A stretch of 64,000 nt of DNA from an uncultured virus (IMG/VR IMGVR_UViG_3300037247_000623) (Duplodnaviria > Heunggongvirae > Uroviricota > Caudoviricetes): the IMG/VR virus record IMGVR_UViG_3300037247_000623. One strand, 5' to 3'. Every line of letters starts with the position of its first letter. The first letter of the stretch is position 1. The position numbers and the translations under genes were made by a program. Below the pieces are notes generated by a model. It saw nothing but the letters and a program-made list of their open reading frames with translations, searched no databases and was not told the origin of the DNA. This document shows positions 3,940-63,720 of the stretch, one piece after another.

Positions 3940-4151
3940 TAGAATCGCCTTTGTTGAGGCGCTACTCCGTGAACCCGATACATATGCTCAACCGCAGCCA
4001 TGTGCTCCTTAACAATATACTGACTTAGTACCTTAAGATCCTTTTTCTGCGTCTCTATCGTCCAACGTTGCCAAGTTGTCCCGGCGAGGAGGCACAGGAT
4101 AACTAACCCGTAGATGAAGTGCCAACGCTGCTTGCTAAACCAAGTTTTCAT
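3939..4151 (-). CDS. Small membrane protein
   Basis: ATG at 4151 (MKTWFSKQRWHFIYGLVILCLLAG), one hydrophobic helix. Confidence 0.5.
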   Translation of the reverse strand: MKTWFSKQRWHFIYGLVILCLLAGTTWQRWTIETQKKDLKVLSQYIVKEHMAAVEHMYRVHGVAPQQRRF

Positions 4152-4153
4152 GT

Positions 4154-4462
4154 TTACCATACAAACCTCAGTCCAAATCCAATTCCAACTCCGTGACCAG
4201 CAACAATAGCTGTCTGGGGAACCCACCAATACTTGAACCCATCCTTACGCCAGCGATGGCCCAAGTAACTGGCTCCAATAGCTAGGGGAATCTGGACGGC
4301 GTAGGCTCTCTTGCGGTCGGCTGACAACAATGGATTTCCTTCGTGACAGGTTCCCGCTCGAATGCAGTGCTGCGTCAGTTCTACATCGGCCACAGTAGTC
4401 GCTATGGTCGCTCCGGTCAGCAACCAAAAACCACTTGCGAGGATGAGGCAGAGTGTGGACAT
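4154..4462 (-). CDS. Membrane protein, DUF5658-like
   Basis: Hydrophobic helices with D...T and EGNPL motif. Confidence 0.45.
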   Translation of the reverse strand: MSTLCLILASGFWLLTGATIATTVADVELTQHCIRAGTCHEGNPLLSADRKRAYAVQIPLAIGASYLGHRWRKDGFKYWWVPQTAIVAGHGVGIGFGLRFVW

Positions 4463-5028
4463 TAGGGTTTGAAGACACAAACAAGAGGGTCGCGTGACGT
4501 ACTAGCAGTTATGGCTCCGAGAGTTGCTGGCAAAACTCCACTTGAACCACTATTTGCGGCTATGCCAGCGGGAGCATTTGTAGAACCTTCGTTTAGAATT
4601 AACTCGCCAAAGTTGTCCACAAAAAGCTTTCGGCCTATTACGCTTGCGCTGGTGCTAGTCTGAGCGAAGTAGTAAATCCCTGGCTCTATCGTGACTGCTG
4701 TAACGGCAGTATCTATAATCCCTTGGTCTGCTATTTCGGAAGCGAGTGCCCCGACATGGACAAGGCGAACACTGCCGTCAGCATTGTAGAGTCCAACCGA
4801 AGAAAACGACCCATTTACCCCGGTTGTCAATTCCCATGTGATTCTCCTCACTACTATACGAAATGGGAGAACGAACTGATAAGCACCGACATTATCGGCA
4901 ACGCCCACTAGCGCAGCGGCGTTGATAGTCAATGGTTGATGAATACCGACGGCAAAGAAATATCCCTCGTCAGCCGTTTCCACCGTCGCTACAGAACCAC
5001 GACCTCCCGCCGACATGAGAATAGACAT
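4462..5028 (-). CDS. Putative virion-associated beta-rich protein
   Basis: Likely start ATG 5028 (MSILMSAGGRG); Gly/Ala/Thr-rich. Confidence 0.5.
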   Translation of the reverse strand: MSILMSAGGRGSVATVETADEGYFFAVGIHQPLTINAAALVGVADNVGAYQFVLPFRIVVRRITWELTTGVNGSFSSVGLYNADGSVRLVHVGALASEIADQGIIDTAVTAVTIEPGIYYFAQTSTSASVIGRKLFVDNFGELILNEGSTNAPAGIAANSGSSGVLPATLGAITASTSRDPLVCVFKP

Positions 5029-5030
5029 TC

Positions 5031-5341: not shown

Positions 5342-5518
5342 CTATTTATCCTTTGTTTCTTTCTTGTCTTTACCCTTCTCAGGGGTAAGTTGTTCTATTC
5401 GCCGGGACAAATCAACTATCTCTCGTAGAAGCCCGTCGCGCTGCAATTGCAGCCTTCCTAGCTTCACATTTGCTTCGTCTAACGCCCCTAGAATATCTTC
5501 AACTGTTATCTGTACCAT
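5342..5518 (-). CDS. Small coiled-coil protein (not in ORF track)
   Basis: MVQITVEDILGALDEANVKLGRLQLQRDGLLREIVDLSRRIEQL..., GGAGG RBS. Confidence 0.5.
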   Translation of the reverse strand: MVQITVEDILGALDEANVKLGRLQLQRDGLLREIVDLSRRIEQLTPEKGKDKKETKDK

Positions 5519-13357: not shown

Positions 13358-13649
13358 TTATCTGTACAAGCTCATAAGAACACCCTTGGGGCAGTTTTAT
13401 TTCGCCGCCCGCTGCTATATACTCTTTCCAGTGGTTAAGACACTTGCTGTAGTAAGCAACTGAACCGTCCATCCGACACATTCTAATCGGCCTGTTGGGT
13501 TCGAGGGTTTCCCATATTGAGCAGGAAGTTGCGTCAGGTTGTCCCGGCGAACCGTGTATGTTGAGGTATTCGCACCACGCTTGTCCGTCTGCGGAAAAGC
13601 AGCAGGCACCACAGCAATTACAGCTGCCTTTTAAGAATTGAGCCTCCAC
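13347..13649 (-). CDS. YkgJ-like cysteine-cluster protein
   Basis: CNCCGACC...CEYL...CSIW..RP..C pattern. Confidence 0.55.
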   Translation of the reverse strand: MEAQFLKGSCNCCGACCFSADGQAWCEYLNIHGSPGQPDATSCSIWETLEPNRPIRMCRMDGSVAYYSKCLNHWKEYIAAGGEIKLPQGCSYELVQINGV

Positions 13650-13805: not shown

Positions 13806-14141
13806 TTAACTCAGCTGGAACCACATGAAAGTCCAGGTCAAGTCCGCGCCGTCGATTGTCCCGGCAGTCGGGTTGCCAATTCGCACTAAGAATGCATCTG
13901 CAGAGGCGACGCGGCAACCGTCATAGGTAAGCCCAGCTTCAAGGGAAGCAGGCGGAAAGCCAACCACGACATCGCCTACCTTAATTCCAGCTCGTGTTAC
14001 CGAAACATCTTCGTCGGTAACAGTAGTCAAGCTGGATGGATCAACGTTAGCCGTAAATACGTGGATTCCCTTAATGGTAGTCCGCAAGCTTGCGTCAAAG
14101 TCGTAGAAATCGAATTGGGGATCAGTGAATAGAAAGGCCAT
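13806..14141 (-). CDS. Putative virion protein
   Basis: Beta-rich (GIKVGDVVV, VRIGNPTAGTID). Confidence 0.5.
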   Translation of the reverse strand: MAFLFTDPQFDFYDFDASLRTTIKGIHVFTANVDPSSLTTVTDEDVSVTRAGIKVGDVVVGFPPASLEAGLTYDGCRVASADAFLVRIGNPTAGTIDGADLTWTFMWFQLS

Positions 14142-14359: not shown

Positions 14360-15833
14360 CGTCGCTTATTCCCTCCCTTGTACGTCTCCCCTTTGGCCGC
14401 ATAGCCGAAAGGTACTGGAAACTGTTCATAAGGTGATCATTCCGCTTCTTCGGCTTATCCTTTCCCAAGCCCTTCAATTCACCCTTCGCAAAAAAGTCCC
14501 ACGTGTAATGAGATATTTCGCTCTTGAAGTGCTCCAAATCCTGAAATACCCTCACCCAAGGATGCCGACTCCCAGGTGTAATCGTCGAATGCATATACTC
14601 TCGACTTGCGTTAAGCCCGAAATCCTCTCCAACCACCGCCAACCTCACTGGGATTCCCGCCTCTCGATAGAGTTGCATATTCGTCTTGTGGGTCTCTGCA
14701 TTCCTCTGCGAACCCCACTTCGGGTCTATCAACCAAATATCTACCGGCTCTCCAGCAGTAAAGATCTTGATGCTCTTTGCGTGCTCACTGATTACTTTGT
14801 CCCGTTCGTAATATTCCCGGTAGAGGTAGATATTTCCCTTATCGTCAACTGCCCCCCAAAGCGCTGCGGTAACTCCTGTAGAGGCAGGGTCAAGAGATAC
14901 GATTCTGGTCCAGTCTCGGGGAATCCGGAATGGCTTGACAAGGTGCTTAGCTGGGTCCCACATATTGTAGACAAGTCCCGAACGCTGAATAAACTCTCCA
15001 TAAAGCCTCGCTTTCTCCTCAAAGTGCCCCGACCACTTGATAAGTAACCTATCTTTCTCCTCCGCCGGGACATAGGGATTATCTAAAACCGACAACTGCA
15101 CAAACTCAACGTCGTCCTTCCCGGCCTTCATTTCCTCGTAGAGATCGAAAACCCACGGCGTCTTGACGCCTGAGCCCTTATCCGTCAACGGAGTGAGCGT
15201 CAGGAGCAGCTTTCCTGCACAATCTGCCGTGCGTTGGAAGCATTCATCGAAAATCTCTACCTCCGGCTCCTCGTCAATCCAAACAAGGTCAACCGAAGCC
15301 CCCTGAAACTTCTCTCTACCCGAGTCCGCCGACTTCCCAGTGATGACGCTTCCGTTCTTTAGGAAGAGTTGGAAGTCCCTATCTACCTGCCGGATGATCC
15401 ATCCAGGCTCGCTGGGGAGGAATCTAGGGTGATTTCTACCAAAAAGTAATTTTTCTCGCCAAATAACGTCACGTAGGACGCTAAAATCCAAGCCGACGAC
15501 CCAAATGTTATTGGGGGGCTCGGGGATCGGTAAGTCCTTGACATACTCCCAAGCAGGCTCATTCCGGAAATATTCTTTTCCAAGCGCCCACGCAGTTGCA
15601 ACAAATGCTCCAAACTCGGTTTTTCCACTCCGATTGCCCCCTAGTACCCCAAAAACCTTCTTATCCTTGGTAAATCTCTTGAAAAGTGGCTTCTGCTTCT
15701 CATACGGCTCCCAATACTTGACGTAATGCTCTTTGCGCCGTTTCTGGTCGAGCGCCTCCAGTAATACCAATGCCTCCTTATTGGACGGCAGTCGTGCCAG
15801 ATGTTCGAGCAACTGGTCCTTTTGCTTGCTCAT
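14319..15833 (-). CDS. terL: Terminase large subunit
   Basis: Walker A GGNRSGKT, FQGASVDLVWIDEEP Walker B, LTLTP coupling motif, nuclease SLDPA...NDHLMNSFQY. Confidence 0.93.
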   Translation of the reverse strand: MSKQKDQLLEHLARLPSNKEALVLLEALDQKRRKEHYVKYWEPYEKQKPLFKRFTKDKKVFGVLGGNRSGKTEFGAFVATAWALGKEYFRNEPAWEYVKDLPIPEPPNNIWVVGLDFSVLRDVIWREKLLFGRNHPRFLPSEPGWIIRQVDRDFQLFLKNGSVITGKSADSGREKFQGASVDLVWIDEEPEVEIFDECFQRTADCAGKLLLTLTPLTDKGSGVKTPWVFDLYEEMKAGKDDVEFVQLSVLDNPYVPAEEKDRLLIKWSGHFEEKARLYGEFIQRSGLVYNMWDPAKHLVKPFRIPRDWTRIVSLDPASTGVTAALWGAVDDKGNIYLYREYYERDKVISEHAKSIKIFTAGEPVDIWLIDPKWGSQRNAETHKTNMQLYREAGIPVRLAVVGEDFGLNASREYMHSTITPGSRHPWVRVFQDLEHFKSEISHYTWDFFAKGELKGLGKDKPKKRNDHLMNSFQYLSAMRPKGRRTREGISDDERRKFARLNSYT

Positions 15834-17394: not shown

Positions 17395-20300
17395 GATGAC
17401 AGTACGGTGGAAAACAGAGAGGCCGGACAGCGGCTACGAAGTGCTCAACTACGAGGGCCGGTGGGAGCCTATCAGCCGTGAGGCTATTGAGTGTGAGCTG
17501 AACGCTGGTGGGATGGTGACGTGGAAGCCCACGGGGAGTGGGCGATGAGCTACCGGACCACGATAGACAGCATCGAGCGCGAGTCGCAAGCTAACTCGCA
17601 AGCGATAGCTGATGGCACCCTGACGGGGCTGGCGTCGCTGGACATGGAAGACGCCCTGGAGTTGAGGCGCAAGCGAGCAGCAGCAAGGCGGGGCATGAGA
17701 GCACAGCAGAGCAAGGAAGAGCAAGTGGGCGAAGATTGTGGACATAGGAAGCATCACCAGCCGTGCTGGTGTGAGGGCTAAGGACATGAGGATTGAGCTA
17801 GATGAAGGGGCGTTCGCGGCTGTACTCGTCATCTGTCTGACCGTGATTTTTTGTGCGTGTATGTTAGTTGTCATTTGGGGTGGACGATGAGAGCAGCAAT
17901 GGTTATCAAGCAGTATTTCAGCACGCCGGACAAGCCTGTCGGCATCCGAGAGGTAGCTGACTTGTTCAAGGCAGTACCGCGTCAAGAGTATCTGAACATG
18001 GCAAAGGACGCCGCGAACCAGATGGGCGTCACGTTGGAGGTGGACGATGCAAAGACTCCAGTCGTATCCAGGTAAGGCGCTCTCGCTCATGTGCCTGAGC
18101 AACAAGGGACACGGAGTGCAGAGGGTGTACTACATCGTACACAACACAGAGCGCGTGAGGAAGAGCGCCCGCCACCCGTGGAAGACTGTGGACAACAGCA
18201 AGTACGTCTTGGGGTGTGCTTGTCAGAGGAAGGCGGGGGTATGAGAGTTAGGTATTTAACTCACCACCAGAAGAAGGCGTATGTTGACGCACACGGTGCG
18301 TGTTGTCCATTCTGCGGGGCAACAAACATCGCAGCTGGGGCCTTTCTGACCGAAGGGGTTGAAGCGTGGCGGATTGTACACTGTCTGGCCCCCCTCTGCG
18401 AGCAGGCGTGGCGAGAGGTATTCAGGCTAGAGTGGATAGAGGACGCAAGGGCGAGCAAGTGGTCATGAGCGCAACCGTAGTCATCGGCGGGCAGACGCTT
18501 CGCATCGGCAAGATTGACTTCGGGGAGTGCCCCAAGTGTGGCAGGGAGATGCTTGAGACAACACACACGCCCAAGTCTTGCATCGAGCGGTGCCACTGTT
18601 GCAATTATATTCAGGCGTGGAGCAAGAAGGGCAAGAAAGCGAAGAGGTGAGACAATGCAGAGAACATCACTGAAGAGAGTGGCGGCGAGAGTTCGCAACC
18701 TGAAGGCAGGGGGAGCAGATGTTTCCCTTGTCTCAATGGGGAGCGGGAAGCAGCAGATTCACAACAAAAGGCAGAACGCGGCGCTATCGCCCGTGCTTGG
18801 GACAGGGGAGCTTGCCAACTGGCTCGACGGGTTCGAGAACGGGCGCAAGCAACAGCCAGTCCTGGTCATTGGGGGAGGGGGAGAGTGATAACTAACACGA
18901 AGCGCTTAAGGAACCGCATCTGTAGGTTGCTTAATGACCCGTCTGCCTATCTGCTCTCTAACGCGCTCTTGCGCACTCTAGAACGAGCAGTTAAGCAGAT
19001 AGAAGCGGGCAAGCTCGCCATAGACCTCAAAGGCTATGGCCGGGGGAGGTGAGTGATGGACAAGTTTCCTAAGATGGAGACGATTGAGGCTACGCTCTTC
19101 GGGCAGCGGATGGACATAGGGCCAAGCGACAAGGAGATTGCTGAGGCGCTCTACCAAAGCTCACCAGAGTTCAAGCGGGTTGCTGACGCAGCAGCATCGG
19201 CATTCCACATCGCAAACCAGATTGCCCCCGTTAGCGGTGTGGGCATGGCACACGTTGTAGCCTACGCCCTCAGGGCAGGTGTCACAGCAGAGCGAGCGCG
19301 GGCAGAGTGCGAGCAACTCACATTAGCGATGATTCCAGAGAAAGGAGAGAGGCCATGCCACCGAGAGGATAGCTGCGACAGCATAACCTGACCACCACAA
19401 TAGACAACAACGCGGTTTTGTCCACCGCCAAGCAAAGCACAAAGTGCCTTGCCTCCTAGCGCTTGAGCGGCGCGAGCCGCGAGTAGCTAGGGGAGAGGGC
19501 ATACGGTAGAACCTATGCTAGTTCCGGTTCGTAAATGCGGCTGTAAGTCGCCCCTGTGCTCTCCATTGTTTGGCGGCTTAGTGTACTAACGACTATAGCC
19601 ACCCTACTGACCTAGCAGCGGTGGCAGCGAGTTAGGGAACGGCTACTTAGGGGTAACACCCGTAAAAAGTAGCCTAGCATCGGCACAATACTAGGTCAAT
19701 CCGGTGCGGGTCGCCAATTAACTTAGAGAGGTGAGACGGTGAGCAAGAACAGCACAAACCTTTCAGACAAGCACTTTGCTACTCACAACCTGAGCGATGC
19801 TACGCTAAAGATAGGGACGCTTGAGGGAGAGCAGCTTGGTATCCGGCTGAGCTGGCAGGAGGTTGAGCGTCTAGCTGCGTTCATAAGAGAGGAGCAAAGG
19901 AACTACGAAGGAGAAGGACAAGAGAGGTGAGACAATGACTTGTAGATTCAAGCCGGCCCCACAACCAAAGCGGGAGACGACGTTGGAGCGGCTAAGGCGG
20001 CAGGCTAAGGCGATTAACCGCATCATGGCCAACCACAACGGAGAAATAGGCAGAGAGCAGCGCAAAGCGCAACGCGCTCAGTATCGAGCGCAGAGAGTAG
20101 GCGCTCGGTATGAGGAGAAGATGAAGAAATTCTCAAAGCTCCACGACGACCTTCAGTACCTAGCAGTGGGCTACAACTAGGAGAACCCATGCTCTGCCCA
20201 GACTGTCTAAACTTCTGGATTGGCTTACGGAACATAGCTGTCCCGGCAATAGGCTTGTGGACGCTAATAATCTACGGAGCCGTCTGGCTCGCAACGGAGG

Positions 20301-26420: not shown

Positions 26421-26668
26421 AGGTTTGCCGACGAGAGCGCAATAGAGCGACACGCAACTTGCTTAGGCTATCACTTGCTGCCATTGGCCTGACGGGCCTG
26501 TCCCGGCGAAAGAGGGAGTTTACCAGCTCCCTTTTGTAGCTAGCTGAGATCGGTGGGGGAGATATTCTTCTTCTTTGTTGTACTCGACTTTAGGAGAAGC
26601 CTAGTGCCTCTGTGGGCAACGTAGGATGGCTACTCGCTGGTGAGGTACGCGACGGCGCGTGCAAGCTG
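26421..26668 (+). ncRNA. Possible structured RNA
   Basis: Gap without a convincing ORF; several stems (AAAGAGGGAG/CTCCCTTTT, TAGGCT/AGCCTA, GGCCT/GGGCC). Confidence 0.35.
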
Positions 26669-37494: not shown

Positions 37495-37668
37495 ATGCCA
37501 CTATACGAATTCAAATGCCCAAACGAAAAGTGCCCGGATGTTGTTCCATCCATTGAGGTTATCCTTTCGAGCTTTGAGAGTGAGAACCCGCCTTGTCCAT
37601 ATTGCGGGAGGGAGTTGAAACGGAAGCCCTCCGCCGGGACATTCCAATGGGGAAGGGGGATGAAGTGA
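37495..37668 (+). CDS. FmdB-family zinc-ribbon protein
   Basis: MPLYEFKC...CPYCG..LKR..S. Confidence 0.75.
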   Translation: MPLYEFKCPNEKCPDVVPSIEVILSSFESENPPCPYCGRELKRKPSAGTFQWGRGMK

Positions 37669-43109: not shown

Positions 43110-43207
43110 AGCAGTTAGGAAAAGAGGTTCGAGTCTTGATCACTAGCGACTCGCCGGGACAATAGTGACGAGGGTTGGGCCTCTATTCCTATATCTAATG
43201 GGGTAAT

Positions 43208-43513
43208 ATGGACTTCGAGCATATTCTAGCACGCGAGTTGTTACACTGGGGATGGGGAGGAACGCTCTATTTATACTCCTTGCTAGGATTCCACTACCTA
43301 CAACGGTTCACCAAGTTCAAGATAAATGACCTAGCCGGATTTGTTGTCCCGGCGGTAGTCCTAGTGTTCATCATATCTGTCGGAGAATTCGGCGAGCTGT
43401 CACGGGGCTCGTGGCTTGGGAAGTCTTACATCGATCTCGCAACATGGATAGGTTCAGTAGGGAGTATGGCTTGGCTAGTTAGGTGGTTGAAGAGGCACGC
43501 ATGGACGCGATAA
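43208..43513 (+). CDS. Membrane protein
   Basis: Three hydrophobic segments. Confidence 0.5.
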   Translation: MDFEHILARELLHWGWGGTLYLYSLLGFHYLQRFTKFKINDLAGFVVPAVVLVFIISVGEFGELSRGSWLGKSYIDLATWIGSVGSMAWLVRWLKRHAWTR

Positions 43514-46522: not shown

Positions 46523-46696
46523 ACTCATATTCGAGATGGACGGATTTAGGCATAAGGTGCGACTGGAGGCGGAGTCATGGGACGGATTGGCCGATCTTGC
46601 TAAAAGAAGTACCTTCATTTTCGCGCTAGCCAAAGAGGATTTCCTAGAACACGAAGAGGAACTTGCAAAAGGTGTCCCGGCACAGGAGAGCAACAA

Positions 46697-47040: not shown

Positions 47041-47456
47041 TGGTTAAGCTCTTCGTTGATGGGGGGCCGAAAAAGGGCGCATGGGTCATGACCGATGACA
47101 TAGGTGGGTACATGGCCCACGATGAGATGACCCTAGAGGGTGTTCTCACGAGCAACGAGGGGGAGTATGAGGCTCTTTGGCTCGCGCTTAAGAAGCTCCT
47201 ACCCGGAGTTAAGGGGCCATTCTTAGTCTATCTAGACTCCAAGTTGGTGGTTAATCAACTCTCAGACGCATGGCGAATCAACAAGCCCACCCTGCGTCAG
47301 CGAGCAATTGAGATTTGGGCTCTGATTGTGAAGCATCCGGAGGCTATAGTACGGTTCAAATGGATAAGGAGAAACAAGAACTTCGCAGGGCTGTTGCTAG
47401 AGGGCAAAGGCTTGTCCAAACTCTTCCCAAAGATAGCTGGATTAGACGCTGGATAG
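47040..47456 (+). CDS. Ribonuclease HI
   Basis: FVDGG, TSNEGEYEAL, DSKLVVNQL, WIRRNKN. Confidence 0.88.
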   Translation: MVKLFVDGGPKKGAWVMTDDIGGYMAHDEMTLEGVLTSNEGEYEALWLALKKLLPGVKGPFLVYLDSKLVVNQLSDAWRINKPTLRQRAIEIWALIVKHPEAIVRFKWIRRNKNFAGLLLEGKGLSKLFPKIAGLDAG

Positions 47457-48553
47457 GGGCGTGGGAGGCAACTGAGACTCCTAAGAGTTTTATGCTCTTT
47501 ACAGCGTTGTCAGCCTTTGGTGCTGCGTTGGGGAGAAAGGTTTGGAATGACACCCGCGACCCGCATCGTTTGTGGCCGATGCTAAACTTGGTTCTAGTTT
47601 CTGGGAGTGGAAAGGGGAAAAGTTCTGCGATAGACCGGTTCCAGAACCTAATTGAGGGGTTTCCTAAGGGAAAGCGAATACCGATTTCGGAGCAAGCTAC
47701 ACCGGAGAGTTTCCATGACGTGCTCATGGTCAAGTCACAGACCATCCTAAAGGCGTCGGAGATGGCGCGTGCGTTTCCCAAGACGGACTACATGAAGGGC
47801 ATGATTCCGTATGTGACGGAACTTCTTGACTATAAAGACTCTATTAGCCGAAGCACACGGAAGGATGGAGAGCTAGTCGTTCGAAGGCCCTCAGTGACGG
47901 TCATAGCCGGGACAACGATAAACTGGTTGCAGACAGCCTTGCCGGATGAAGCCTTAACGGGGGGCTTCCTAGCACGCTTCTTGATTGTCCACGAGAAGTG
48001 GAAAGATCGAAAGGTAGCCTTTCCTGGCGAAGTAAGCAAGGAGAAGAGAGAAACAGTTAGTGCCTATAGAGAGAAGCTCGCACTGGAGTTCGCACAGCTG
48101 GTTAGGGATACTCCAACGGGTGAGGTTGATTGGGACAACTACAGTGCGAGAGATATTTACTCAGTTTGGTATCATAAGAACGAAGCGGAGACAGGCTACT
48201 TAGAGCCTATTGCAGCGCGTGCCGCAGAGTTTGTACTTCGACTTGCAATCTTGATAGTAGCCTCTTGCGGACGCACTACGATAACTGTGGCCGACATCAA
48301 CTGCGCGATAGGGCTGTATGCCTATGCAACTAAACAACTTATGGAAGTTCTAGTACCATTCACATCGGACGGGAAGTATCAGGGAATGGTGCTAGAAGTG
48401 TTGGGGGACAAGCCGATGGCGCAAGAGGAAATCTATCGGGCGATGCAGAACACACTCATCTCCCAAAAGACGCAGACGATTATTCAGAGCTTGGTGCTGT
48501 CGGGGAAGTTGAAGAGGTTGGAGAACAATAGGTTTGTGAGAGCGAGGGAATGA
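47315..48553 (+). CDS. DUF3987/YfjI-like P-loop helicase with C-terminal winged helix (start uncertain)
   Basis: GSGKGKSSA, TPES, SEM, GGFLARF. Confidence 0.75.
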   Translation: MGSDCEASGGYSTVQMDKEKQELRRAVARGQRLVQTLPKDSWIRRWIGAWEATETPKSFMLFTALSAFGAALGRKVWNDTRDPHRLWPMLNLVLVSGSGKGKSSAIDRFQNLIEGFPKGKRIPISEQATPESFHDVLMVKSQTILKASEMARAFPKTDYMKGMIPYVTELLDYKDSISRSTRKDGELVVRRPSVTVIAGTTINWLQTALPDEALTGGFLARFLIVHEKWKDRKVAFPGEVSKEKRETVSAYREKLALEFAQLVRDTPTGEVDWDNYSARDIYSVWYHKNEAETGYLEPIAARAAEFVLRLAILIVASCGRTTITVADINCAIGLYAYATKQLMEVLVPFTSDGKYQGMVLEVLGDKPMAQEEIYRAMQNTLISQKTQTIIQSLVLSGKLKRLENNRFVRARE

Positions 48554-48661: not shown

Positions 48662-49483
48662 ATGGCTGAATACATACGCTTTAAGTTCGACACAAAGAAG
48701 CTTAAACTAAAGACGCCCGTAATCCGTATCTATCCATTGGTCTGTTTCCATATCGGCGCGGAGCAGTCAGACGGGAAGTTTATCAACCAGATGATCACGC
48801 GGTTGAAGAACGACCCCAACGGACGGGGTATCTATATGGGTGATGGTGGGGAGTGCGTCATCCGAAGTTCCGTGGGGAACATTTATGAGCAACTTCTCTC
48901 GCCCCAAGGACAACACGACAGGCTCGTGGAACTCTTCGAGCCCGTTAAAGAGAAGCTGCTTTTCGGTATACGAGGTAATCACGGCAATCGAATCTACAAG
49001 GAGACTGGCCTTGAGTTTGACAAAAATCTTTGCCACCGTATTGGAATTCCTTACATGGGTGTTGCTGCCTTTGTTAATCTTGTTGTCAATCGCAGTAGCT
49101 ATGATCTATACGTCCATCATGGTATTGACAGTGGGGTCAGCGCGACAACTAAGATAAGGAAAGCTGAACAGTTGGGAAACAATGCTGAGGTGGACGCGAC
49201 ACTTACGGCGCACTCGCACTATTGTATCGAATTGCCACCACTCTACAAACAGAACTGCGATAACACCAATGCGCGAATTGTAACCAGAGTACAGAGTCAG
49301 TATATTTGTGGCTCAGCCTATGACAGTCGAACAGGCTATGCCGAGGAAAAAGGGTACTCACCCCTACTCCCAAGCCACATCATCATCACGTTCGATGGCA
49401 GGATCATCTCAGGCAAGGCCGTCAAGCAGCAACGGAGTGAGATAGTCAGGTCAACAGCGGATTATGAGATTGTCCCGGCGTAG
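48662..49483 (+). CDS. Metallophosphoesterase
   Basis: FHIG, MGDG, GNHG, HHG, AHSH. Confidence 0.8.
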   Translation: MAEYIRFKFDTKKLKLKTPVIRIYPLVCFHIGAEQSDGKFINQMITRLKNDPNGRGIYMGDGGECVIRSSVGNIYEQLLSPQGQHDRLVELFEPVKEKLLFGIRGNHGNRIYKETGLEFDKNLCHRIGIPYMGVAAFVNLVVNRSSYDLYVHHGIDSGVSATTKIRKAEQLGNNAEVDATLTAHSHYCIELPPLYKQNCDNTNARIVTRVQSQYICGSAYDSRTGYAEEKGYSPLLPSHIIITFDGRIISGKAVKQQRSEIVRSTADYEIVPA

Positions 49484-49484
49484 G

Positions 49485-52449: not shown

Positions 52450-52673
52450 ACTTTCTTTGACTTATTTTCAAGGTGCGTGTCGAGGCGCTTGCCTACATTG
52501 TCAATGCCCGCTTGTAAGTGGGGGAGATCGTTCTTCTTCATGTAATCCACCTTTCCCTCAATGCGTCCGAAGCGGATACCTGCCCGCCACGCGAGGCCAA
52601 AGAGGGATAGAAGGGTTATAGCTGTCCCGGCGAGGGTCGTAAGAGTTTCTGGTTCTAGTAGAGGGTGAGTCAT
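52443..52673 (-). CDS. Holin-like small membrane protein
   Basis: One TM helix followed by a coiled coil (NDLPHL...RLDTHL). Confidence 0.45.
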   Translation of the reverse strand: MTHPLLEPETLTTLAGTAITLLSLFGLAWRAGIRFGRIEGKVDYMKKNDLPHLQAGIDNVGKRLDTHLENKSKKVS

Positions 52674-55600: not shown

Positions 55601-58600
55601 CCTCCCATGAGGCGTTGGCCCTTGAGAACAGAGCGCTTCATTTCGGGGGTGATGTCTATGGCATGGACGGGGCGGGTATCCGGAAAGTTTGGTTCAGGCG
55701 GGACAGGGATTCTGATAGTCCGAACTCTAGCTCCCCACTTCTTCCCATACTTGTTCAAGTAGTTCGGGATGATGTTGTCGTAGAGTGCTCGAAGAGACTT
55801 ACCTCCTACTTCGATGCCTTTTACGTCGAGTTCTCGCCAGCCGGAACTTGCAATAGGAAGACCTTCAGCTTCAAGACCGCGAATAGGCGCTCCCTTTTTC
55901 TGTGTGATCGCTTCTGCGATTTCCTTTCCGAAGGTAGGTGCGAGATCTTCTTTAGCAAACGTGTGGTCTAGATTGGGTATAGGATTCCCTTTCAAGTCCA
56001 TCGGAGTGATCTTGTATTGTCCCGGTTTGAGAGGATTCTCTTTGTACTCAATAGTGGACAGGACCTTAGCGAGATCGTACCTCGCTACTTGCTGCTTCCC
56101 AGTAGTCCAAGCCAACTTGTCGAAGCCCTTCTCTGCTGCGTAGCGGAGCATGCGCTTGAGGGAGAGTTCGTGCCAGTCTTTTAGGAAGGGGGTTGGAGGA
56201 GCATCTACAGCAATACCGGGCCGCCGTTCTGCTTGTGCCCAATCACTCTGCATCTCCTCAACAAACAACACCCGCTTTCCCTGAACGTCCACCCGCTCAT
56301 TGAAGCGGATGTGGGCTAGAATGTTGGACTCGCCCTCGAAGTGGCCTCCTCGGAAGTCGCCACCCATATCCACAAGATCTTCAGCCGTCTCGAAGCGTTC
56401 TATTAACCTCCCATAGGTAGTGAGATCCTCTGGAGAAAGGAGCCTTTTTATTGTAGGGTTGTCAAGAATTTCTAAATCTTGAGCCTGGAATATTCTACGT
56501 CCTTCGGGATATTTCTCTCTGAGAATGTGTTCGAACTGCGTAAGTTCCCTACCAGCCGCTCTTGCCGCTTCCGCAGCCACCGCTCCCTGTGGCTCTCTCT
56601 CAGGAAGCTTCAGCAACAGCTCCTTGTAGTTTTCGCCTCCGGGGAGTTGGTACTTGGAATACTCAGGGTCTCTTCCTACTTTGGCCGACTCAATAGTACG
56701 GGCCAGCTGTGCTTCAGCTGCTTTCTTAGCGAGTAATGCGGCATGCCCAAAGCTTTGTGCTTTCTTGCCGACCAAGCCTATTAACGCATCTCCCGGTCCA
56801 GTTCCCGCTTTATAGCTAAGCCCTTCTTCAACAATTTCAAAAGCCTCATCAGTAGGTTCTCCGCGTTCACGTAGTTCTTCTCTCACCGCGCGAATCAACT
56901 CGTTTGATATAGCACGATATTTGGTGGAAGTTTGGTCGGAATAGGTTGTTTGCTCCCGAATTACCGTACTAAATCTAGGCTCTAACTTTCGCTGCCCTAG
57001 TTCGACCTCCTCAATGGTAATCTGATTCTTCCTGAGCGTATCCAGAACCTCTTGCTTGGTAACAGGACGCTTCTCCTTCCTAGCTAGCGCTAGGAGGTCG
57101 TCTAAGCCACTCCACTTGGCCTCAGCGAGCGTAACTCCCGCCTTGCGGACCAAGGCCCCTATCTGCTCAGGAGCAGCCCTGTTGGGCATCCTAGCCTCTA
57201 CTACTCGCTCTAGGTGGCTATAGAAGGTCGGCCCCTTCGTAGCTAGCTCAGCTACGCGGTCCTGGAACGCCTTGAGCTTAGCCTTCTTCTCCTCTACAGC
57301 AGCAGCTCGCTTGTTGATGAACTCCTTGATGCGCTGAGGGAGCATCTCTCCGAGGGTGATAAATCCCCCCTCCCTACGTCGTTGTCCTGGCTTCTTAGCT
57401 GCGGCGAACTTCGCGTGCTCTAGCGCCCTCGGATCCTGCTGTGCCTTTAGTTCTACGTATCTGGCAAGCGCCGCTCGGAAATTGTCAGTCCAAAACTCAA
57501 CTGAGACATCCATGGGAAGGGCAGCTTGAATCTCCTTTACTGCCTTCCCGAAGCCGAGTCGCTCCATCTTCTTGACGAGAGCATCAATCCGCTTAGTACC
57601 CAGCTCCGCTCTTGAGGGCATTGGGAGCTTGATGTCAGTTACGGGCGCTTCCTCGGGCGGAATCTCTATTGGGGCTACGGCCTTCTTACGCTTAGCCTCA
57701 AGGATAGCGTTGCGGAGGTTCTGCTCGTGCTTGCCCAGGCGAGTCCCAATATCCTCTGCCTTATCAAATTGCTTCGCTACGCCACGAACCTGTTCAAGAG
57801 CTTCGGGGCCCGCCACTTCTGCCAACTCATCTTCCATTCCCTTGATGACTCGGAGGTACTCGTCTTGGATTTCCGCTCGACCCCGTACTGCAACCTTCTC
57901 TTCAGCAACCGTGCCTACTGTGAACTCTTCTTCGGGTCCACGGATACCTACCTCTCGCTTCTGTTGCCTCTCGGCCTTGCGTCGGGCGTTCGCTACTTCA
58001 TTCCTAACGAATCCCCAAAACCAAGTAGTCACCTTGCCCTTGCCCTTGAAAGTCTTGGCCTTTAGCATCGCCTTACTAACAGCGAGTTCTGCAATTCCCT
58101 CGTCGATCAGGTAGTCTGATACCTTCTTCGTATAGGACTTGCGGATGACTGCCTTTGCGTAGGATAGGAACTTCTTATGAAGCGGCCCTGCGATAGTCTC
58201 ATTCTTGACCTTCTCGGAAATAGCGGGGTTGCGCCACCTTGCGAAGTCTGCAGCGAGTGCTTCACTAAGCTTTCGAGTTTCCGCCTCCCTAGCCTGAGCT
58301 TGCTTACTCTTCGCCGGGACAACTTTCGCAGCTTTCCGTGGGACGAATTCATTGGGGCTTGGGATGTCGCTGACTTGGGTTACTTCTCCTGTAGTAGGAA
58401 GTCGGGCGGGCATGGCCCCGCGAGCCTCACGAACCTCTCGGGCGTTGATGTCTGGTGCAACGGTTCCGCGCCGGGAGACAAGTCCTAACGTCCCCGCTCT
58501 TCGCTGCTCCATCATCTCTTGGACTTCACTTATCCAACGGTCGATTACCTTACGCTCACCGGGCGTGGGTAGCCGCTTCTGTGCTGCCTTTAGGCGATGG

Positions 58601-59795: not shown

Positions 59796-60737
59796 TTACC
59801 TCGGTTGATCGGGTCTAAACGGATTTCCTCCGCCACCTGTACTTGGTCGTTGGAACTTAAAGTCCTCCCACGACAGGGTTCCTCCCATCCTTAGATGGAC
59901 AAAATAATTCGCGCGGAGCTCTCTAAGCCGTTCAAGAGCCTCTGCCCGGTCCCCTTCATTTGCTTCGGGATTCTCCATCATATAGTCGAAGTCATCCATC
60001 TTTTCGAGAATTCCGACTTCCTTGTTGGCTAAACCCTGCTCAGTCCGAAGGAGTTCGTTACGGTCTCTGATTGGGCCTGTGATGATTTCTCGGCCTCGGG
60101 CACCCTCAAGTCCAGAGACATACGCACCTTGACCACGAAGCTGGGCTCGATAAGCTGCCTCTTCGGTCGTGTTCATAGGGCCGCGAGGAGGAGTCTCTGC
60201 CGCACGTTCCGCATTCCTTTTCGCTATGAAACGTTCTATGTCTGTCCCGGCGGATGTCGTAGGAGGTTTGCCAGGAATACCCGGAACTTGCTGTCCTTCA
60301 CCTTCTGGTGTTACCCCAAAAACACCACCGGGTCGCTCGAAGTATTTGACAAAGGGGTCTTCGTCCTCTGGAACGTCAGGGCGACCGAGTTTCTCAGCTC
60401 GCGCAATATCCAACCCTATTCCAGACTCTAGCTTCTGCATCTCCAATCCCTGCTTCATCATCCCCAGCGGGGCAAGAATCTTCTGCATCTGCTTGTTCTT
60501 CTTGAATCCAGGGATGCCGAGGACAGCTTGCGCGACGTTGGAGATAGCCTCTCCGGGGGTGGAACTGGGCTTAGTCAAGGCGGCACCAAGAACAGCTCCC
60601 TCGACCATCGAGGCGATTCGTGGGTGCTTCTTTGAGAAGCGTTTCGGGAAGAGCAGGTTATCTGAGCCTTCGATGTCATTCATCCTGGTTGCTTGATCGA
60701 AGAGGGGAGCGAGCATTTCCATTAGGTCTCTGGGCAT
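59796..60737 (-). CDS. Internal virion/ejection protein (probable)
   Basis: Helical, Gly/Pro-rich; upstream of the giant ejection protein. Confidence 0.55.
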   Translation of the reverse strand: MPRDLMEMLAPLFDQATRMNDIEGSDNLLFPKRFSKKHPRIASMVEGAVLGAALTKPSSTPGEAISNVAQAVLGIPGFKKNKQMQKILAPLGMMKQGLEMQKLESGIGLDIARAEKLGRPDVPEDEDPFVKYFERPGGVFGVTPEGEGQQVPGIPGKPPTTSAGTDIERFIAKRNAERAAETPPRGPMNTTEEAAYRAQLRGQGAYVSGLEGARGREIITGPIRDRNELLRTEQGLANKEVGILEKMDDFDYMMENPEANEGDRAEALERLRELRANYFVHLRMGGTLSWEDFKFQRPSTGGGGNPFRPDQPR

Positions 60738-60739: not shown

Positions 60740-61396
60740 TTATCCTCTAAAACCGGGGTAAGGTGGAGCGGGTTGTCCGCCGAAACCTCCGGGCCAACTT
60801 GCAGGGTTAGAGGTCATTTGACCGGTACCTGTGAATCCACCACCAACTGCGCCACTAGCACCGCCAGTAGCGTAATTGGCGGCTGCTCCGATAGCCGCCC
60901 CAGCGACCTGCGGTAGCCACGTTCCGAGGCCGGAAGTTGTAGTTGTTCCGCTTCCACTTTGCACGCTACTTGTCTTGGTGCCAGTCTGAAGTGGCCGGAA
61001 ACTTTGTGCGTCTCTGCGTGCGCGCTCACGGGCCTGCTGTGCGTAGAGCAAAGAATTGGTAAAGCTTCCTTGTTTGAACGCACTTACAGCACGTTGATTG
61101 GAAGCTAGTATGGATTGCTGCATGGCATTCTGAGCATTTCCAGAGAATCCACCTGCTAATTGATTCTGAAAGAGATTTTGGTTCATGCTCTGGCCGAGTC
61201 GTCCTGCTTGCTGGTTGCTTTGTTGGATAAGTTGATTGAAGTATGTCGCCTGTAAGGGATCCTTCATGTATTCCTTGAGAAGGTTGGCCACTAACGGCTG
61301 AAGACCTTTGTAAGCTTGAAAGGAGGCCGGATCGTACTGAATACTCTGTGAACCGCTAGTTAAGACATTAGTTTTTGTTTCTTGTTTAGTTGACAT
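60740..61396 (-). CDS. Internal virion/pilot protein (probable)
   Basis: Gln/Gly/Ala-rich with C-terminal GAAIGAAA glycine zipper. Confidence 0.6.
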   Translation of the reverse strand: MSTKQETKTNVLTSGSQSIQYDPASFQAYKGLQPLVANLLKEYMKDPLQATYFNQLIQQSNQQAGRLGQSMNQNLFQNQLAGGFSGNAQNAMQQSILASNQRAVSAFKQGSFTNSLLYAQQARERARRDAQSFRPLQTGTKTSSVQSGSGTTTTSGLGTWLPQVAGAAIGAAANYATGGASGAVGGGFTGTGQMTSNPASWPGGFGGQPAPPYPGFRG

Positions 61397-61744
61397 CTAT
61401 AGTACCTTCTTAAAGCGCCGCTCGGGGCCTTTGGATATTGTCTCCGCCCCCCACTTTTCTGCTGTCGTTCGCCACTCCGCATCCTCCTCAAGTATGTTGA
61501 AGTAATACTCTGGAACTCCCATCATTCGTAAGGCAGTTTCAATTCCAAATAGGAACATCATCTTCTTCTGCTTCGGGGTTTTTTCTTCAAAGATAACTGG
61601 GTCTACCTCAGTGACGGTCTTGATAACTGCGAACTCTGTAGTAGCGCCGGGGAAGGCAACTACGGTAGAGGCGTTGTTGAGATTCGCGCCGTCCTTGATA
61701 TTCTCAATCTCTTCTGGAGTTGCTAGTCGGATTGCTGGAATCAA
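61397..61744 (-). CDS. Hypothetical virion-assembly protein (possibly GNAT-like fold)
   Basis: IRLAT.EE start; position before the ejection genes. Confidence 0.4.
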   Translation of the reverse strand: MIPAIRLATPEEIENIKDGANLNNASTVVAFPGATTEFAVIKTVTEVDPVIFEEKTPKQKKMMFLFGIETALRMMGVPEYYFNILEEDAEWRTTAEKWGAETISKGPERRFKKVL

Positions 61745-61756
61745 ACAGTGCTCCCT

Positions 61757-62029
61757 TTAACTGACCTGTTTTAACGTTTCTTTTAATTCTTCTCGCCAAG
61801 CGGCTTCGTCTGCTACTTGTTGACGTGCGGTATCTAAATCCTGTTGTAATTGTGATAAAGTGATTGGAAGCCGCGATCCGTCAACCGCGCCGAAGGTCAC
61901 AGTCTTCTTAACTGACACGCTCCCGATAATTGCTTCTAGTAGCTTGAATGGCGGTGCGCTAGTTGTTATTCCATCTGTATCCGTAACTTGTACTGCTTTG
62001 CCGCGCACTGTGATTGTCATCGTCGGCAT
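61757..62029 (-). CDS. Hypothetical protein
   Basis: ATG 62029 coupled to the upstream stop. Confidence 0.45.
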   Translation of the reverse strand: MPTMTITVRGKAVQVTDTDGITTSAPPFKLLEAIIGSVSVKKTVTFGAVDGSRLPITLSQLQQDLDTARQQVADEAAWREELKETLKQVS

Positions 62030-63720
62030 TAACTTACTCCCTCTATCCAAACCTCATAAATTCTTCCGTCAAGACTCCCTGAAGTGGCGGTTGGGCCAAC
62101 ACGGAGCCTCAGCCGGACTGTGATTTGAGAAGTATTTGTGCTTAGTGGCAAAGTAACTGAATCGGTTTGTAAACTGCGAGTTGTTCCGGCACTAAGTGTA
62201 TATATATCGGTATCTGAGGTGCCGTCATTCCAAATCAACCGGGCGATGCCACCGCCGGTGTTGATCGAATTCGTTTGAACTTCATTTCTAACTTTTAATG
62301 TTAAAGATTTCCATGAAAGGAAGGCAGAGGGAAAATCTAAAACCTCGACAGTTGCCTCATTAGTCCCTGAGTCGCCGTTTAGCCCTTGGGTTGTACTCGT
62401 GGAGGTATCCCCGTCTCTGGCATTAGTCGAATTACTAACGGACCCATTCCCCACTGTGGTTGGGGTATCAGTTGCCGGACTCAGCCTAAGAGACTGCCCA
62501 AATTGTGCTCCTACTCCACCGTCATCATTCCCTATTGTGTCTCCGCCCCCATTTGGAGGAGTAAGAATGGAGCCGACAAAGAATCGATCATCGTCATTAA
62601 GCGCAGTTTCTTTGATGGTTGCGGCGTTAAAGGTTACAGATCCTCCTGCCAAAGTTGCATCGTCGTAGTAAATGTAGTGCAGAGTAGCAAATGATAGACT
62701 GGTAACACTACCAGAATTGATACTGACATCGGTAGCACCCACTCTCATTGTGAAAGCGGCTATGCTAACTGTTGCGGTAGCTCCAGCATCGGTCGCCGTC
62801 AGCGGGTTACTCGTTGGGCGGTAACTACCATGACCAGGACCTAGATTTTCTAGACTAGTAATGTCGGCATTATCTTCAGGTTTTGTAGCTCCATCTACAT
62901 CAGCGAAGTCTACGCCCGTCCCCGAATTACTCGCGGAGGAACTTTGTGTGCTCTCTTGATTCGCTGTGTTTAACGCCGTAACCCAGTAGAAAAAAGTTGT
63001 GCCACGTCCGGCTGTCTTATCAAAGTAGCCAGGATTGCCTGTTTTTGTCACGCCTACGTTGGCTATAGCACTAGAACTCCCAAAAATATCTGCCGTGTGG
63101 CGGTGTACGTTGTAACCAGCAAGGTTTGTTTCAGTGCCAAGGGTCCAACTGAGCTGCACTCCTAACTCTTCTTGATTTGCGCCGAGTCCACTCGGGGCGG
63201 TGGGGGCGCTAGCATTCCCGTCCAGAACACCTGTCTGATTTGGGGCCAAACTCCAATCTTCTCGCGTTCCTCCAAGTGTGTTCTTTGCAATGAAGTAGAA
63301 AGTAACCGTTTCTCCGGTTCGTTGAAGTTGAACATTAAAGCTAGCTGATCCTCCTGCCGCACCAGCAAAGTTATGTTCCGCTACTTTGACGAGTTCTGCT
63401 GACCCTCGATAATCTTCAGCGACTAAAAAAACTCCAGCAAAATTCCCGAGAGGACTTGGTGCGGTGTATGTAGCAGTAACCTCACTCCACACAACTCCGT
63501 CAACAGTGAATCCACTCTCCGAAATTGAAGGACTTGTTATCTCCGCCGGGACACCAACATCCGTAGCGCTTTCGTCTGCGGTAGTTTGGGCGGCGGCGGC
63601 AGCTTCTCGGCTTTGTTCTATTCTTTGCCGAAGCTCCTCTTCGTGATTTTCAATTCCATCTGCCCATTCGTTAAGTACGCCTACCTTTGTATCCTCGAAC
63701 TTCGACAGTCTTAAAGGCAT
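62029..63720 (-). CDS. Tail fibre/spike protein with fibronectin type III domain
   Basis: APTAPSGL...VQLSW...LAGYNVHR...FFYWVTALN...ES. Confidence 0.7.
   Translation of the reverse strand: MPLRLSKFEDTKVGVLNEWADGIENHEEELRQRIEQSREAAAAAQTTADESATDVGVPAEITSPSISESGFTVDGVVWSEVTATYTAPSPLGNFAGVFLVAEDYRGSAELVKVAEHNFAGAAGGSASFNVQLQRTGETVTFYFIAKNTLGGTREDWSLAPNQTGVLDGNASAPTAPSGLGANQEELGVQLSWTLGTETNLAGYNVHRHTADIFGSSSAIANVGVTKTGNPGYFDKTAGRGTTFFYWVTALNTANQESTQSSSASNSGTGVDFADVDGATKPEDNADITSLENLGPGHGSYRPTSNPLTATDAGATATVSIAAFTMRVGATDVSINSGSVTSLSFATLHYIYYDDATLAGGSVTFNAATIKETALNDDDRFFVGSILTPPNGGGDTIGNDDGGVGAQFGQSLRLSPATDTPTTVGNGSVSNSTNARDGDTSTSTTQGLNGDSGTNEATVEVLDFPSAFLSWKSLTLKVRNEVQTNSINTGGGIARLIWNDGTSDTDIYTLSAGTTRSLQTDSVTLPLSTNTSQITVRLRLRVGPTATSGSLDGRIYEVWIEGVS

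Follow-up and report, generated by a model that had tools for sequence, protein, structure and literature searches.

The 64,000-nt window analysed here is the record of an uncultured virus (IMGVR_UViG_3300037247_000623), a phage from marine sediment. It encodes a DUF3987 helicase (47315..48553, + strand), an Xer-like tyrosine recombinase (51520-52392), a Dam-like methyltransferase (49464-49865), a Sak4-like recombinase, two weak RHH-like ORFs and an amidoligase cluster made up of phiEco32-type COOH-NH2 ligases, a glutamine amidotransferase and an ATP-grasp enzyme. For the DUF3987 protein, a candidate partner for the reader of the word described below, the match to phage primase-helicase families is confined to their C-terminal helicase part. 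Searches of the window against Pfam and PHROGs recognised no primase domain of any kind, with E values of up to 5 admitted for 19 ORFs in and around the replication region. The phage genes likewise include no recognised RecBCD inhibitor and no recognised nuclease of the known nicking types. Dispersed through this genome are 22 copies of the nine-base word GCCGGGACA, 10 on the + strand and 12 on the - strand, against an expectation of 0.45. A previous sequence-only reading had reported such a dispersed 9-mer, and all 22 of its coordinates and strands are exact, as is the gap without copies between 5401 and 13540. Combining the window with an identical record (G001) yields a 70,844-bp circular map with 25 copies (12 + and 13 -); with 0 mismatches to the window over 37,196 bases, G001 represents the same phage and adds no independent support. 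The density of the word on the phage is 0.35 per kb, with an observed to expected ratio of about 50.

Within the window, nine copies lie in sense and nine in antisense orientation, and four lie outside called ORFs; on the circular map, 12 copies are sense and 13 antisense relative to transcription. Outside the ORFs of the gene call is the copy at 4077..4085 (-), and those at 20239..20247 (-), 26499..26507 (-) and 43153..43161 (+) are intergenic. Sense copies are read as AGT in ORFs 13806-14141 (13857..13865, -), 20811-21014 (20976..20984, +), 52443-52673 (52623..52631, -) and 59796-60737 (60243..60251, -), in the COOH-NH2 ligase gene 25035-26015 (25518..25526, +), where relatives have WSI or MSV, and in the DUF3987 helicase gene (47906..47914, +), where the relative G002 has GGS. 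The remaining sense copies are read as SPGQ in ORF 13347-13649 (13540..13548, -), as RRDI in ORF 37593-37874 (37633..37641, +) and as RRDN in the ATP-grasp gene 32690-33475 (32979..32987, +), with RKFH or REAK in relatives. Antisense copies correspond to LSRR in ORF 5342-5518 (5401..5409, +) and in the HD-domain gene 36773-37207 (37026..37034, -), to CPG in the metallophosphoesterase gene 38273-39028 (38477..38485, -), to VVPA in ORF 43208-43513 (43345..43353, -) and in the gene for a 2370-aa virion protein (58313..58321, +), to GVPA in ORF 62029-63720 (63545..63553, +) and to YVPA in the large terminase gene (15064..15072, +), where relatives have YVPE, FVPE or YIPP. Another antisense copy (49471..49479, -) occupies the last codons of an SbcD/Mre11-like gene (48662-49483) as IVPA, a reading that homologs with 87, 85 and 75% identity retain, and one more (46673..46681, -) falls where ORFs 46512-46703 and 46663-47040 overlap.

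The enrichment withstands every null model applied. Dinucleotide-preserving shuffles (n=100) give a mean of 0.45 copies and a maximum of 3, and an order-3 Markov model also predicts 0.45 (Poisson P ~1e-29). Shuffling synonymous codons, which keeps all proteins and the codon usage of each gene, leaves 5.1 +/- 1.0 copies over 200 runs (maximum 8), and four of these roughly five survivors are the intergenic copies, beyond the reach of the shuffle; on a second, independent gene call the figure is 4.1 (maximum 6 in 100 shuffles). Under the codon-preserving null that the sequence-only reading had proposed as a check, the excess holds, at 22 copies against about five. The word is also sharp, since its one-mismatch variants (15 against 12 expected) are not enriched. 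The four near-variants previously singled out are indeed present, at 2384, 36384, 40057 and 56018, and are the four CCGGGACA octamers without the first G.

The differing frames and senses noted earlier were likewise recovered (AGT six times, VPA six times, LSRR and RRD twice each, SPGQ and CPG), and GCCGGGACA is read in six frame and sense combinations overall. The word underlies 6 of the 22 AGT tripeptides and 6 of the 11 VPA tripeptides, where codon usage predicts 0.30 and 0.13, respectively. Orthologs could be aligned at four copies, and relatives carry different amino acids at all four. Taken together, the enrichment, the residue left after codon shuffling, the six reading combinations, the ortholog differences and the skewed encoding of AGT and VPA establish that selection acts on DNA. 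The core of the sequence-only reading, a recognition site under selection on DNA rather than protein, is hence supported. Copies in conserved genes arose by substitution, without indels, and the word came about through amino-acid changes at variable protein positions. This is one of three points that go beyond the earlier reading, the others being a pyrimidine tract 5' of the word and the even spacing of copies on each strand.

The tract is CT-rich and G-poor. Relative to orientation-matched random positions, pyrimidines are in excess at -5 to -1, where they make up 68% of the bases if the copy is sense-oriented (P = 0.0004) and 86% if it is antisense-oriented (P < 0.0002), and G occurs at -1, -2 and -3 in 0, 1 and 0 of the 25 copies. 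As had been observed before, the base at -1 is C in 15 of the 22 window copies and G in none. The geometry of this 5' tract would suit a template role. No conserved flank was found beyond it at the phage copies. Neither a hairpin nor a composition anomaly was found at the copies, and inverted partner half-sites (up to 2 mismatches, within 15 bp) accompany only two of them, against about one by our own chance estimate; the plain word is therefore the signal.

Per-strand spacing was analysed on the circular map. Gaps on the + strand have a coefficient of variation (CV) of 0.37 (P = 0.0004) and those on the - strand one of 0.57 (P = 0.03), the summed per-strand evenness statistic gives P = 0.0002, and permuting strand labels over unchanged positions gives P = 0.005. 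Each strand thus carries its own even series, with a spacing of about 5.5-6 kb, and from this it follows that the reader of the word distinguishes orientation. The pooled copies, on the other hand, are not even (gap CV 0.78, P = 0.19), so that the former description of a site tiled roughly every 3 kb is not supported for them; the accompanying claim of no strand bias is right as a count and misses the two separate series. An exact word running evenly through genes on both strands amounts to a DNA-level signal, of the form 5'-(G-poor pyrimidine run, ~5 nt)-GCCGGGACA-3', written by point substitutions into both strands of a genome of about 71 kb.

The word is private to this phage lineage. The sequence-only reading had suggested a search for the same word in related phages and candidate hosts, and seven near-complete relatives and 80 metagenome loci contain neither GCCGGGACA nor an equivalent. 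Relatives that share the polymerase, Sak4 and exonuclease (G002 also the helicase) are among those without the word or an equivalent, and it is therefore unlikely that the reader is encoded by the shared replication genes. On the bacterial side, a phage-like density was found in none of 401 Chloroflexota genomes, 401 Acidobacteriota genomes (10-mer search) or 15 other genomes, nor at 80 loci among the matches listed when 185,579 species genomes were scanned for pairs of the word; these genomes are samples, and the host may lie outside them. In one Acidobacteriota genome (G805) a repeated element has the 9-mer as its inverted end, with the two copies of a pair separated by 458 bp (349 copies against 57 for the control), and in an Actinomycetota MAG it forms REP-like hairpins (246 against 39).

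Our preferred reading, offered tentatively and with clearly less than an even chance of being right, is that GCCGGGACA marks fixed points at which the synthesis of a DNA strand starts, and is read on a single-stranded template. Where that template is exposed, a replication protein would identify the nine-base word and begin a purine-rich primer on the pyrimidine run directly 5' of it, in most cases by placing a G opposite the C at -1; the even series on each strand would make either strand usable as a lagging-strand template and keep fragments to about 10 kb or less. Also in favour of this reading, a relative from another study (run X3, loose end at 36285) has CTCGCCGGGACAAC in sequence that is non-alignable to the window. 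The single-strand reading, the start of synthesis at the word and the identity of the reader are what we infer. Well-studied primases read 3-5 bases, and a strict 9-mer would be unusual for such an enzyme. Known primase sites (the NrS-1 8-nt site plus GTG, the GTC-based site of T7 gp4) are, as here, asymmetric words read on one strand; GCCGGGACA is longer and stricter, and against priming stands also that the phage has no recognised primase, its DUF3987 protein being the helicase part only. The NrS-1 primase-polymerase offers a likeness, since according to the sections of PMC8718748 consulted it recognises 8 nt of template and starts synthesis at the first base 5' of this site, a position comparable to the pyrimidine-rich, G-poor five bases of this phage, which would suit a purine-started primer; the same sections record that the 8-mer later proved dispensable. 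Our literature search found no report of genome-wide, evenly spaced primase-site enrichment.

Among the candidates put forward by the sequence-only reading, a priming signal and a Chi-like site are kept as first and second readings, neither of them demonstrated, whereas per-strand evenness and the lack of inverted half-sites beyond chance speak against nucleoid or segregation proteins, the RHH protein and a duplex-binding recombinase. Chi is active in a single orientation, and known Chi sites are 5-8 nt long, against 9 nt plus a flank here. In such a role, GCCGGGACA would make a host RecBCD/AddAB-type helicase-nuclease that degrades phage DNA from a break stop destroying the DNA and turn to its repair; wherever in the genome the break occurred, copies in both orientations would keep the loss small, and one-orientation action would account for the separate even series. 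This unlikely explanation needs no phage gene, in keeping with a word confined to a single lineage whose relatives have similar gene sets. Chi and GCCGGGACA are both asymmetric, orientation-dependent words, at about 0.2-0.35 per kb between them. In the parts of Bobay, Touchon and Rocha 2013 (PMC3784561) used here, Chi is under selection in phages that leave the host nuclease uninhibited, and stands at 0.2 per kb in E. coli and in lambdoid phages lacking recombinases, near the 0.35 of this phage, whose Sak4-like recombinase without a recognised RecBCD inhibitor places it in the class that over-represents Chi. The same parts give an observed to expected ratio of 2.4-3.1 for lambdoid Chi, against about 50 here, and a concentration between ori and cos, against a spread across the whole genome. 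Moreover, the biased flank is the 5' one, which an enzyme arriving from 3' reaches only once recognition has taken place, the tract is rich in C and T and poor in G, and no sampled genome has the word at phage-like density. It is quite improbable that the copies are docking sites for a duplex-DNA-binding protein, be it a dispersed-operator repressor, a nucleoid or condensation protein, a partition protein or an Xer-like tyrosine recombinase. Nine bp is the size of one recombinase half-site or monomer operator, mycobacteriophage L5 and P1 have dispersed asymmetric operators, and the phage of the window encodes the Xer-like recombinase and the RHH-like ORFs. Duplex binding leaves unexplained, however, why evenness is per strand and not pooled; stoperators are oriented and intergenic, unlike 12 sense and 13 antisense copies with only 4 of 22 outside ORFs; inverted partners are near chance; and relatives have recombinase homologs without having the word.

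A host genome signature, acquired passively or by drive as an uptake-sequence-like word or as remnants of repeat elements, is very doubtful. Uptake sequences, the USS of Pasteurellaceae and DUS of Neisseriaceae, are asymmetric words of 9-12 nt with a core and weaker flanks, equal on both strands, unusually even, mostly within genes and in tolerant reading frames, traits that GCCGGGACA resembles, and the 9-mer does occur in the repeat elements of G805 and the Actinomycetota MAG. Yet those genomes carry it only within these elements, at about one per 19-20 kb, whereas the phage copies lack a partner or conserved flank beyond the tract and came from indel-free substitution in conserved genes. One-mismatch decay variants, common for uptake sequences, are not enriched in the phage, and USS and DUS are signatures of competent bacteria maintained by uptake bias, whereas the carrier here is a phage and no searched bacterial genome bears the word at its density. 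There is similarly little likelihood of a target for sequence-specific modification by the Dam-like methyltransferase or the amidoligase cluster; both are present and GCCGGGACA has two adenines, but such a role explains neither the 50-fold enrichment nor the per-strand spacing, and the amidoligase genes are common to relatives without the word. A likelier alternative than these, though still an unlikely one, is that a phage nickase cuts one strand at or beside the word in packaged or replicating DNA, with sites on both strands and nicks that could double as 3'-OH starts for strand-displacement synthesis. The available portions of PMC3517423 describe one-strand nick sites in phages tf, T5 and the phiKMV group; in tf the site is an exact 9-mer, TACTGTGAC (TACTRTGMC in tf/LUZ24-like phages), scattered across genes at many times its expected frequency. 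It has 14 copies in 46 kb and no more than 3 one-substitution variants, and related phages use a variant word; GCCGGGACA shares the sharpness (15 variants against 12 expected). In those portions, nevertheless, all sites occupy the same strand and are grouped in half of the genome, as opposed to 12 + and 13 - copies evenly round the genome; the 5' pyrimidine tract is a further difference, no nuclease of known nicking type was recognised, and opposite-strand nicks at the closest inverted copies (73 and 192 bp apart) would weaken the duplex. One-strand words of the tf type may still exist in this phage family, because the relative L021 has its own word, ACCTCTAC(C), in 9 copies on a single strand irrespective of gene direction.

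All 22 positions at which the sequence-only reading had placed the nonamer GCCGGGACA are exact matches in the window (10 on the + strand and 12 on the - strand), and the enrichment it had proposed stays in place under both dinucleotide-aware and codon-aware nulls. The observed count compares with a mean of 0.45 copies (maximum 3) in dinucleotide shuffles and with an identical expectation of 0.45 under an order-3 Markov model. Shuffling synonymous codons within genes, which keeps the proteins and the codon usage of each gene, leaves 5.1 ± 1.0 copies, and four of these roughly five survivors are intergenic and untouchable by that shuffle; with an independent gene call, 4.1 copies are left. The unit is the exact nine-base word. 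Its 27 one-mismatch words add up to 15 occurrences, against 12 expected, and GCCGGGAC and CCGGGACA are found 22 and 26 times, respectively. An IMG/VR record of the identical phage (G001), which shows no mismatches across 24,578 + 12,618 common bases, links both window ends through 6,844 extra bases into a 70,844-bp circular map, and this map holds 25 copies of the word, 12 on the + strand and 13 on the - strand.

Most copies in the window (18 of 22) lie inside ORFs, nine in sense and nine in antisense orientation, with the other four outside called ORFs; relative to the direction of transcription, the 25 copies of the circular map divide into 12 sense and 13 antisense. The word is read in protein in six ways, among which AGT and VPA are favoured with six copies each. 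The window proteins contain 22 AGT tripeptides, six of which carry the word (0.30 expected from codon usage), and 11 VPA tripeptides, of which again six carry it (0.13 expected), so that these cheap slots are well exploited without being saturated. All four copies with alignable orthologs correspond to different residues in relatives: YVPA in the terminase is replaced by YVPE, FVPE or YIPP, AGT in a ligase by WSI or MSV, RRDN in the ATP-grasp enzyme by RKFH or REAK, and AGT in the helicase by GGS. No indels were detected at these four copies. Substitutions at variable positions, some of them non-synonymous, gave rise to the copies. Selection acts on the DNA, and protein changes are the price.

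Along each strand of the circular map the word is evenly spaced. The gap CV is 0.37 on the + strand (P = 0.0004) and 0.57 on the - strand (P = 0.03), the summed per-strand evenness statistic yields P = 0.0002, and permuting strand labels over the same positions yields P = 0.005, all of these P values being indicative, as the per-strand statistic was chosen after inspection of the copy list. Gaps between same-strand copies reach about 10.5 kb at most. Spacing is not even when the strands are pooled (CV 0.78, P = 0.19), and inverted copies lie as near as 73 and 192 bp to each other. Evenness on each strand but not in the pooled set implies that the reader, meaning whatever recognises the word, distinguishes the two orientations, and this reader either reads one strand or moves one way. 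The same pattern disfavours a plain duplex-binding protein, which we regard as improbable. An RNA or transcription signal is disfavoured by the equal sense and antisense use; L5 stoperators and P1 C1 operators are intergenic or promoter-located and oriented with transcription, whereas the word sits mainly within ORFs and in both senses. Orientation alternates around the whole map, with 20 switches in 25 steps (indicative P = 0.006), which likewise disfavours a signal polarised relative to an origin, to a terminus or to the ends of the genome.

Just 5' of the word lies a short tract that is rich in pyrimidines and poor in G. Pyrimidines make up 68% of positions -5 to -1 at transcription-sense copies (P = 0.0004) and 86% at antisense copies (P < 0.0002), in both cases against orientation-matched random positions. 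Among the 25 copies, G is absent from positions -1 (C 17, T 4, A 4) and -3 and occurs once at -2, while the 3' flank favours A and then C no more than weakly. Beyond this pyrimidine bias, no conserved flank was found around the copies, nor was any hairpin or melting signal detected at them, predicted single-strand folding energy and GC matching those of random positions. An inverted partner (up to 2 mismatches, 0-15 bp) accompanies two of the 25 copies, against our own chance estimate of about one; tyrosine-recombinase core sites, by comparison, comprise two inverted half-sites with a 6-8-bp spacer.

Among relatives with 64-69% terminase identity, G002 (65.7 kb) and G004 (62.2 kb, with terminal repeats) contain no copy of the word and G003 (30.7 kb) contains one. 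The more distant G005 (9.6 kb, terminase identity 24%) has none, and five further records with an SbcD-like gene (G411-G415) have 0, 1, 2, 0 and 0 copies, respectively. Taken together, 80 metagenome loci with 56-70% terminase identity (455,389 bases) hold three copies against 3.5 expected. No counterpart word was found in the seven near-complete relatives (G002, G004, G411-G415). Their top words reach just 2-2.5 times the level of a synonymous shuffle and are randomly spaced (CV 0.8-2.1), those of G414 and G415 are mostly confined to one frame and sense, and the octamer CGTAGTAC of G412 has 10 of its 22 copies in intergenic positions. The palindrome GTACTACGTAGTAC also recurs in G412 (about 8-9 copies), as does AACCCGGGTTGACAC in G413 (about 8 copies); all three words are probably not counterparts of the nonamer but regulatory sites or terminators. 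In a metagenome relative with a 67% identical terminase (L021:1196-15046), ACCTCTAC(C) appears nine times in 15 kb, on one DNA strand throughout and with local genes on either strand, an arrangement reminiscent of phage tf, whose nick words keep to a single strand.

In the viral and metagenome collections scanned, no record with a terminase identity between 70% and 100% came up. Homologous proteins with 75-94% identity are on record, and two sequencing runs from other marine studies (X2 and X3) contain short contigs 80-95% identical to the window. One X3 contig end, among the 18 loose ends listed (with 364 further), reads CTCGCCGGGACAAC in a stretch that does not align to the window. The word does extend to close relatives. 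Homologous proteins agree weakly with its presence there: IVPA at the C-terminus persists in SbcD-like homologs of 87, 85 and 75% identity and a 62% homolog has ITSA, and VPA is kept in a 94%-identical terminase, a match that is little informative since 17 of 120 relatives, that one included, have VPA.

The search for a host covered samples of genomes, and its negative results hold for the genomes searched. When 185,579 species genomes were scanned with an alignment of the large terminase, no prophage emerged, and neither host taxa, via the protein atlas, nor a close cultured phage were found. Scanning species genomes for the close inverted pair GCCGGGACA-N0-30-TGTCCCGGC returned at least 121 hits, as scattered singles, and 59 of the 80 loci examined among the matches listed have nothing but the pair. 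The phage density of one copy per 2.8 kb is not approached by any of 401 Chloroflexota (9-mer counted), 401 Acidobacteriota (10-mer counted) or 15 other genomes, five from other phyla among them; the 802-genome phylum samples include G183, G282, G354, G048, G155, G237, G572, G444 and G469, which are flagged as unpublished and enter the result as members of that total alone. In the word-richest bacterial genomes the copies sit in the genomes' own repeat elements, at about one per 19-20 kb. An Actinomycetota MAG (G006) has 246 copies against 39 of a control, in REP-like hairpin pairs, and in an acidobacterial genome (G805; for example, loci L245-L250) the corresponding counts are 349 and 57, the copies being paired at a distance of exactly 458 bp as the inverted termini of a repeated element some 470 bp long. 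A Chloroflexi contig (L134:2861-3005) carries the word in a tandem hairpin repeat. We take these uses to be unrelated to that of the phage. The copies in G805 and G006 belong to longer paired units, whereas phage copies lack a partner and a conserved flank; the missing flank and the lack of indels at copies in conserved genes also argue against their origin in MITE/REP-type repeats.

Two kinds of process need a reachable site everywhere on each strand, namely the starting of strands and the halting of a nuclease that enters from a break. The leading reading, which we favour only tentatively, is that the word marks fixed start sites for DNA-strand synthesis, in which case a primer begun beside it would copy the tract side. 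A pyrimidine-rich, G-poor tract on the primer-copied side favours strand starts over a nuclease stop, and such a primer would start with a purine; what the tract contributes here is a bias in sequence. Primase template sites are alike in placing the word 3' of the start point and in having a start region suited to a purine-started primer, and the NrS-1 enzyme offers a precedent, with a long template word and synthesis that begins from the base immediately 5' of that word (PMC8718748). The phage is unlike these systems in that a recognisable primase is absent, searches of its 116 ORFs with Pfam and PHROGs primase families returning none, even at E-values of up to 5 for 19 ORFs. An ORF at 48662-49483 was considered as a primase and rejected, for its conserved motifs read as those of a calcineurin-like (SbcD/Mre11-type) phosphoesterase; by sequence, it has no match in the PDB. 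The start-site reading also has to contend with relatives that share the polymerase and, in G002, the helicase as well, without any such word. It is conceivable, if doubtful, that an initiator of DNA synthesis specific for nine bases, be it a novel kind of primase or a nicking initiator, has escaped recognition among the genes of the phage, and that the starts of discontinuous synthesis would be hard-wired on both strands.

A Chi-like site, read by a nuclease of the host, requires no phage gene, and the private distribution and density of the word fit such a site (PMC3784561). Nonetheless, we consider it unlikely, for no known Chi is as long or nearly as enriched as this word, and a host carrying it did not turn up among the genomes searched. 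The action of Chi depends on orientation; the per-strand evenness indicates that orientation matters for the word, without pointing to a particular enzyme. Chi is over-represented and strand-skewed in the host chromosome; in the genome samples searched, the word did not reach phage-like density. Nick sites on two strands, which would overlap with strand starts if nicks prime synthesis, are less likely still. The tf type is the nearest known in form, being an exact, sharp 9-mer that varies among related phages, and the nick motifs of tf/LUZ24-like, T5 and phiKMV-like phages resemble the word in being exact, strongly over-represented and poor in near-variants. However, all their sites lie on one strand (PMC3517423), whereas the word occupies both in nearly equal numbers. 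An inherited host signature is very improbable. USS/DUS number in the thousands in competent bacteria; among the genomes sampled, none of this kind was found. We assign an equally slight chance to a modification target, and the remaining probability to something else. In literature searched mostly without full text, we found no published account in which both strands of a phage genome each carry evenly spaced copies of one exact word.

Were the copies start sites, this virus would have the places of its replication fragments written into its sequence and pay for it with amino-acid changes, the initiator protein would be among its unannotated genes, and the unusually long sequence specificity of that protein would make it a potential tool. 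Hard-wired start points would represent a wider class of 'written priming maps' in phages, a class not found in the literature, again searched mostly without full text. If the word were Chi-like, it would be the longest Chi known and provide a direct handle on the host of an uncultured marine-sediment phage. Under either reading, a nine-base word at 50 times its expectation amounts to a coding constraint that is invisible to gene-centred annotation.

The window covers the greater part of an uncultured tailed phage genome whose gene set is of the phiEco32/SU10 type. The sole sequencing run with a good match to it, labelled as a marine sediment metagenome, may be its source, and the SbcD-like protein of the phage is also recorded on a 72,613-bp contig. 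Genes run leftward until about 16.5 kb, rightward until about 51.5 kb and leftward thereafter. They encode an SU10-like portal (1924-3939), a large terminase (14319-15833), a virion protein of 2370 aa, an ECF-like sigma factor (34092-34643) and a family A DNA polymerase (44075-46522) with an N-terminal uracil-DNA-glycosylase-like domain (Pfam UDG, residues 35-178), together with an RNase H-like ORF, a DUF3987 helicase, a Sak4-like annealing protein, a PD-(D/E)XK exonuclease, two metallophosphoesterases, a Dam-like methyltransferase, MazG-type pyrophosphatases, a Xer-like tyrosine recombinase and three tRNAs. An amidoligase cluster (24300-35725), partly common to G002 and G004, comprises GGACT, three phiEco32-type COOH-NH2 ligases, a glutamine amidotransferase, an ATP-grasp enzyme and a GNAT acetyltransferase.

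Other repeated words are present as well. The 16-base CTACTATGTTAGACCC occurs five times, at 16522(+), 36033(-), 39052(-), 42658(-) and 52416(+), and, read on its opposite strand, precedes a GGAG-type ribosome site and always points along the gene direction; since an ECF-like sigma factor is among the phage's own genes, these copies are probably phage-sigma promoters. Their counterpart in G004 is CCACCTnnAATGGGTCC, with eight copies. TTGTCCACA, the DnaA-box form of high-GC bacteria, has two copies, at 4613(+) and 18187(-), too few for interpretation. Finally, the regions at 50517-51171 and 36773-37207 encode a dATP/dGTP diphosphohydrolase N-terminal domain, a MazG pyrophosphatase and an HD_4 phosphohydrolase, which suggests phage interference with the pool of nucleotides or alarmones.
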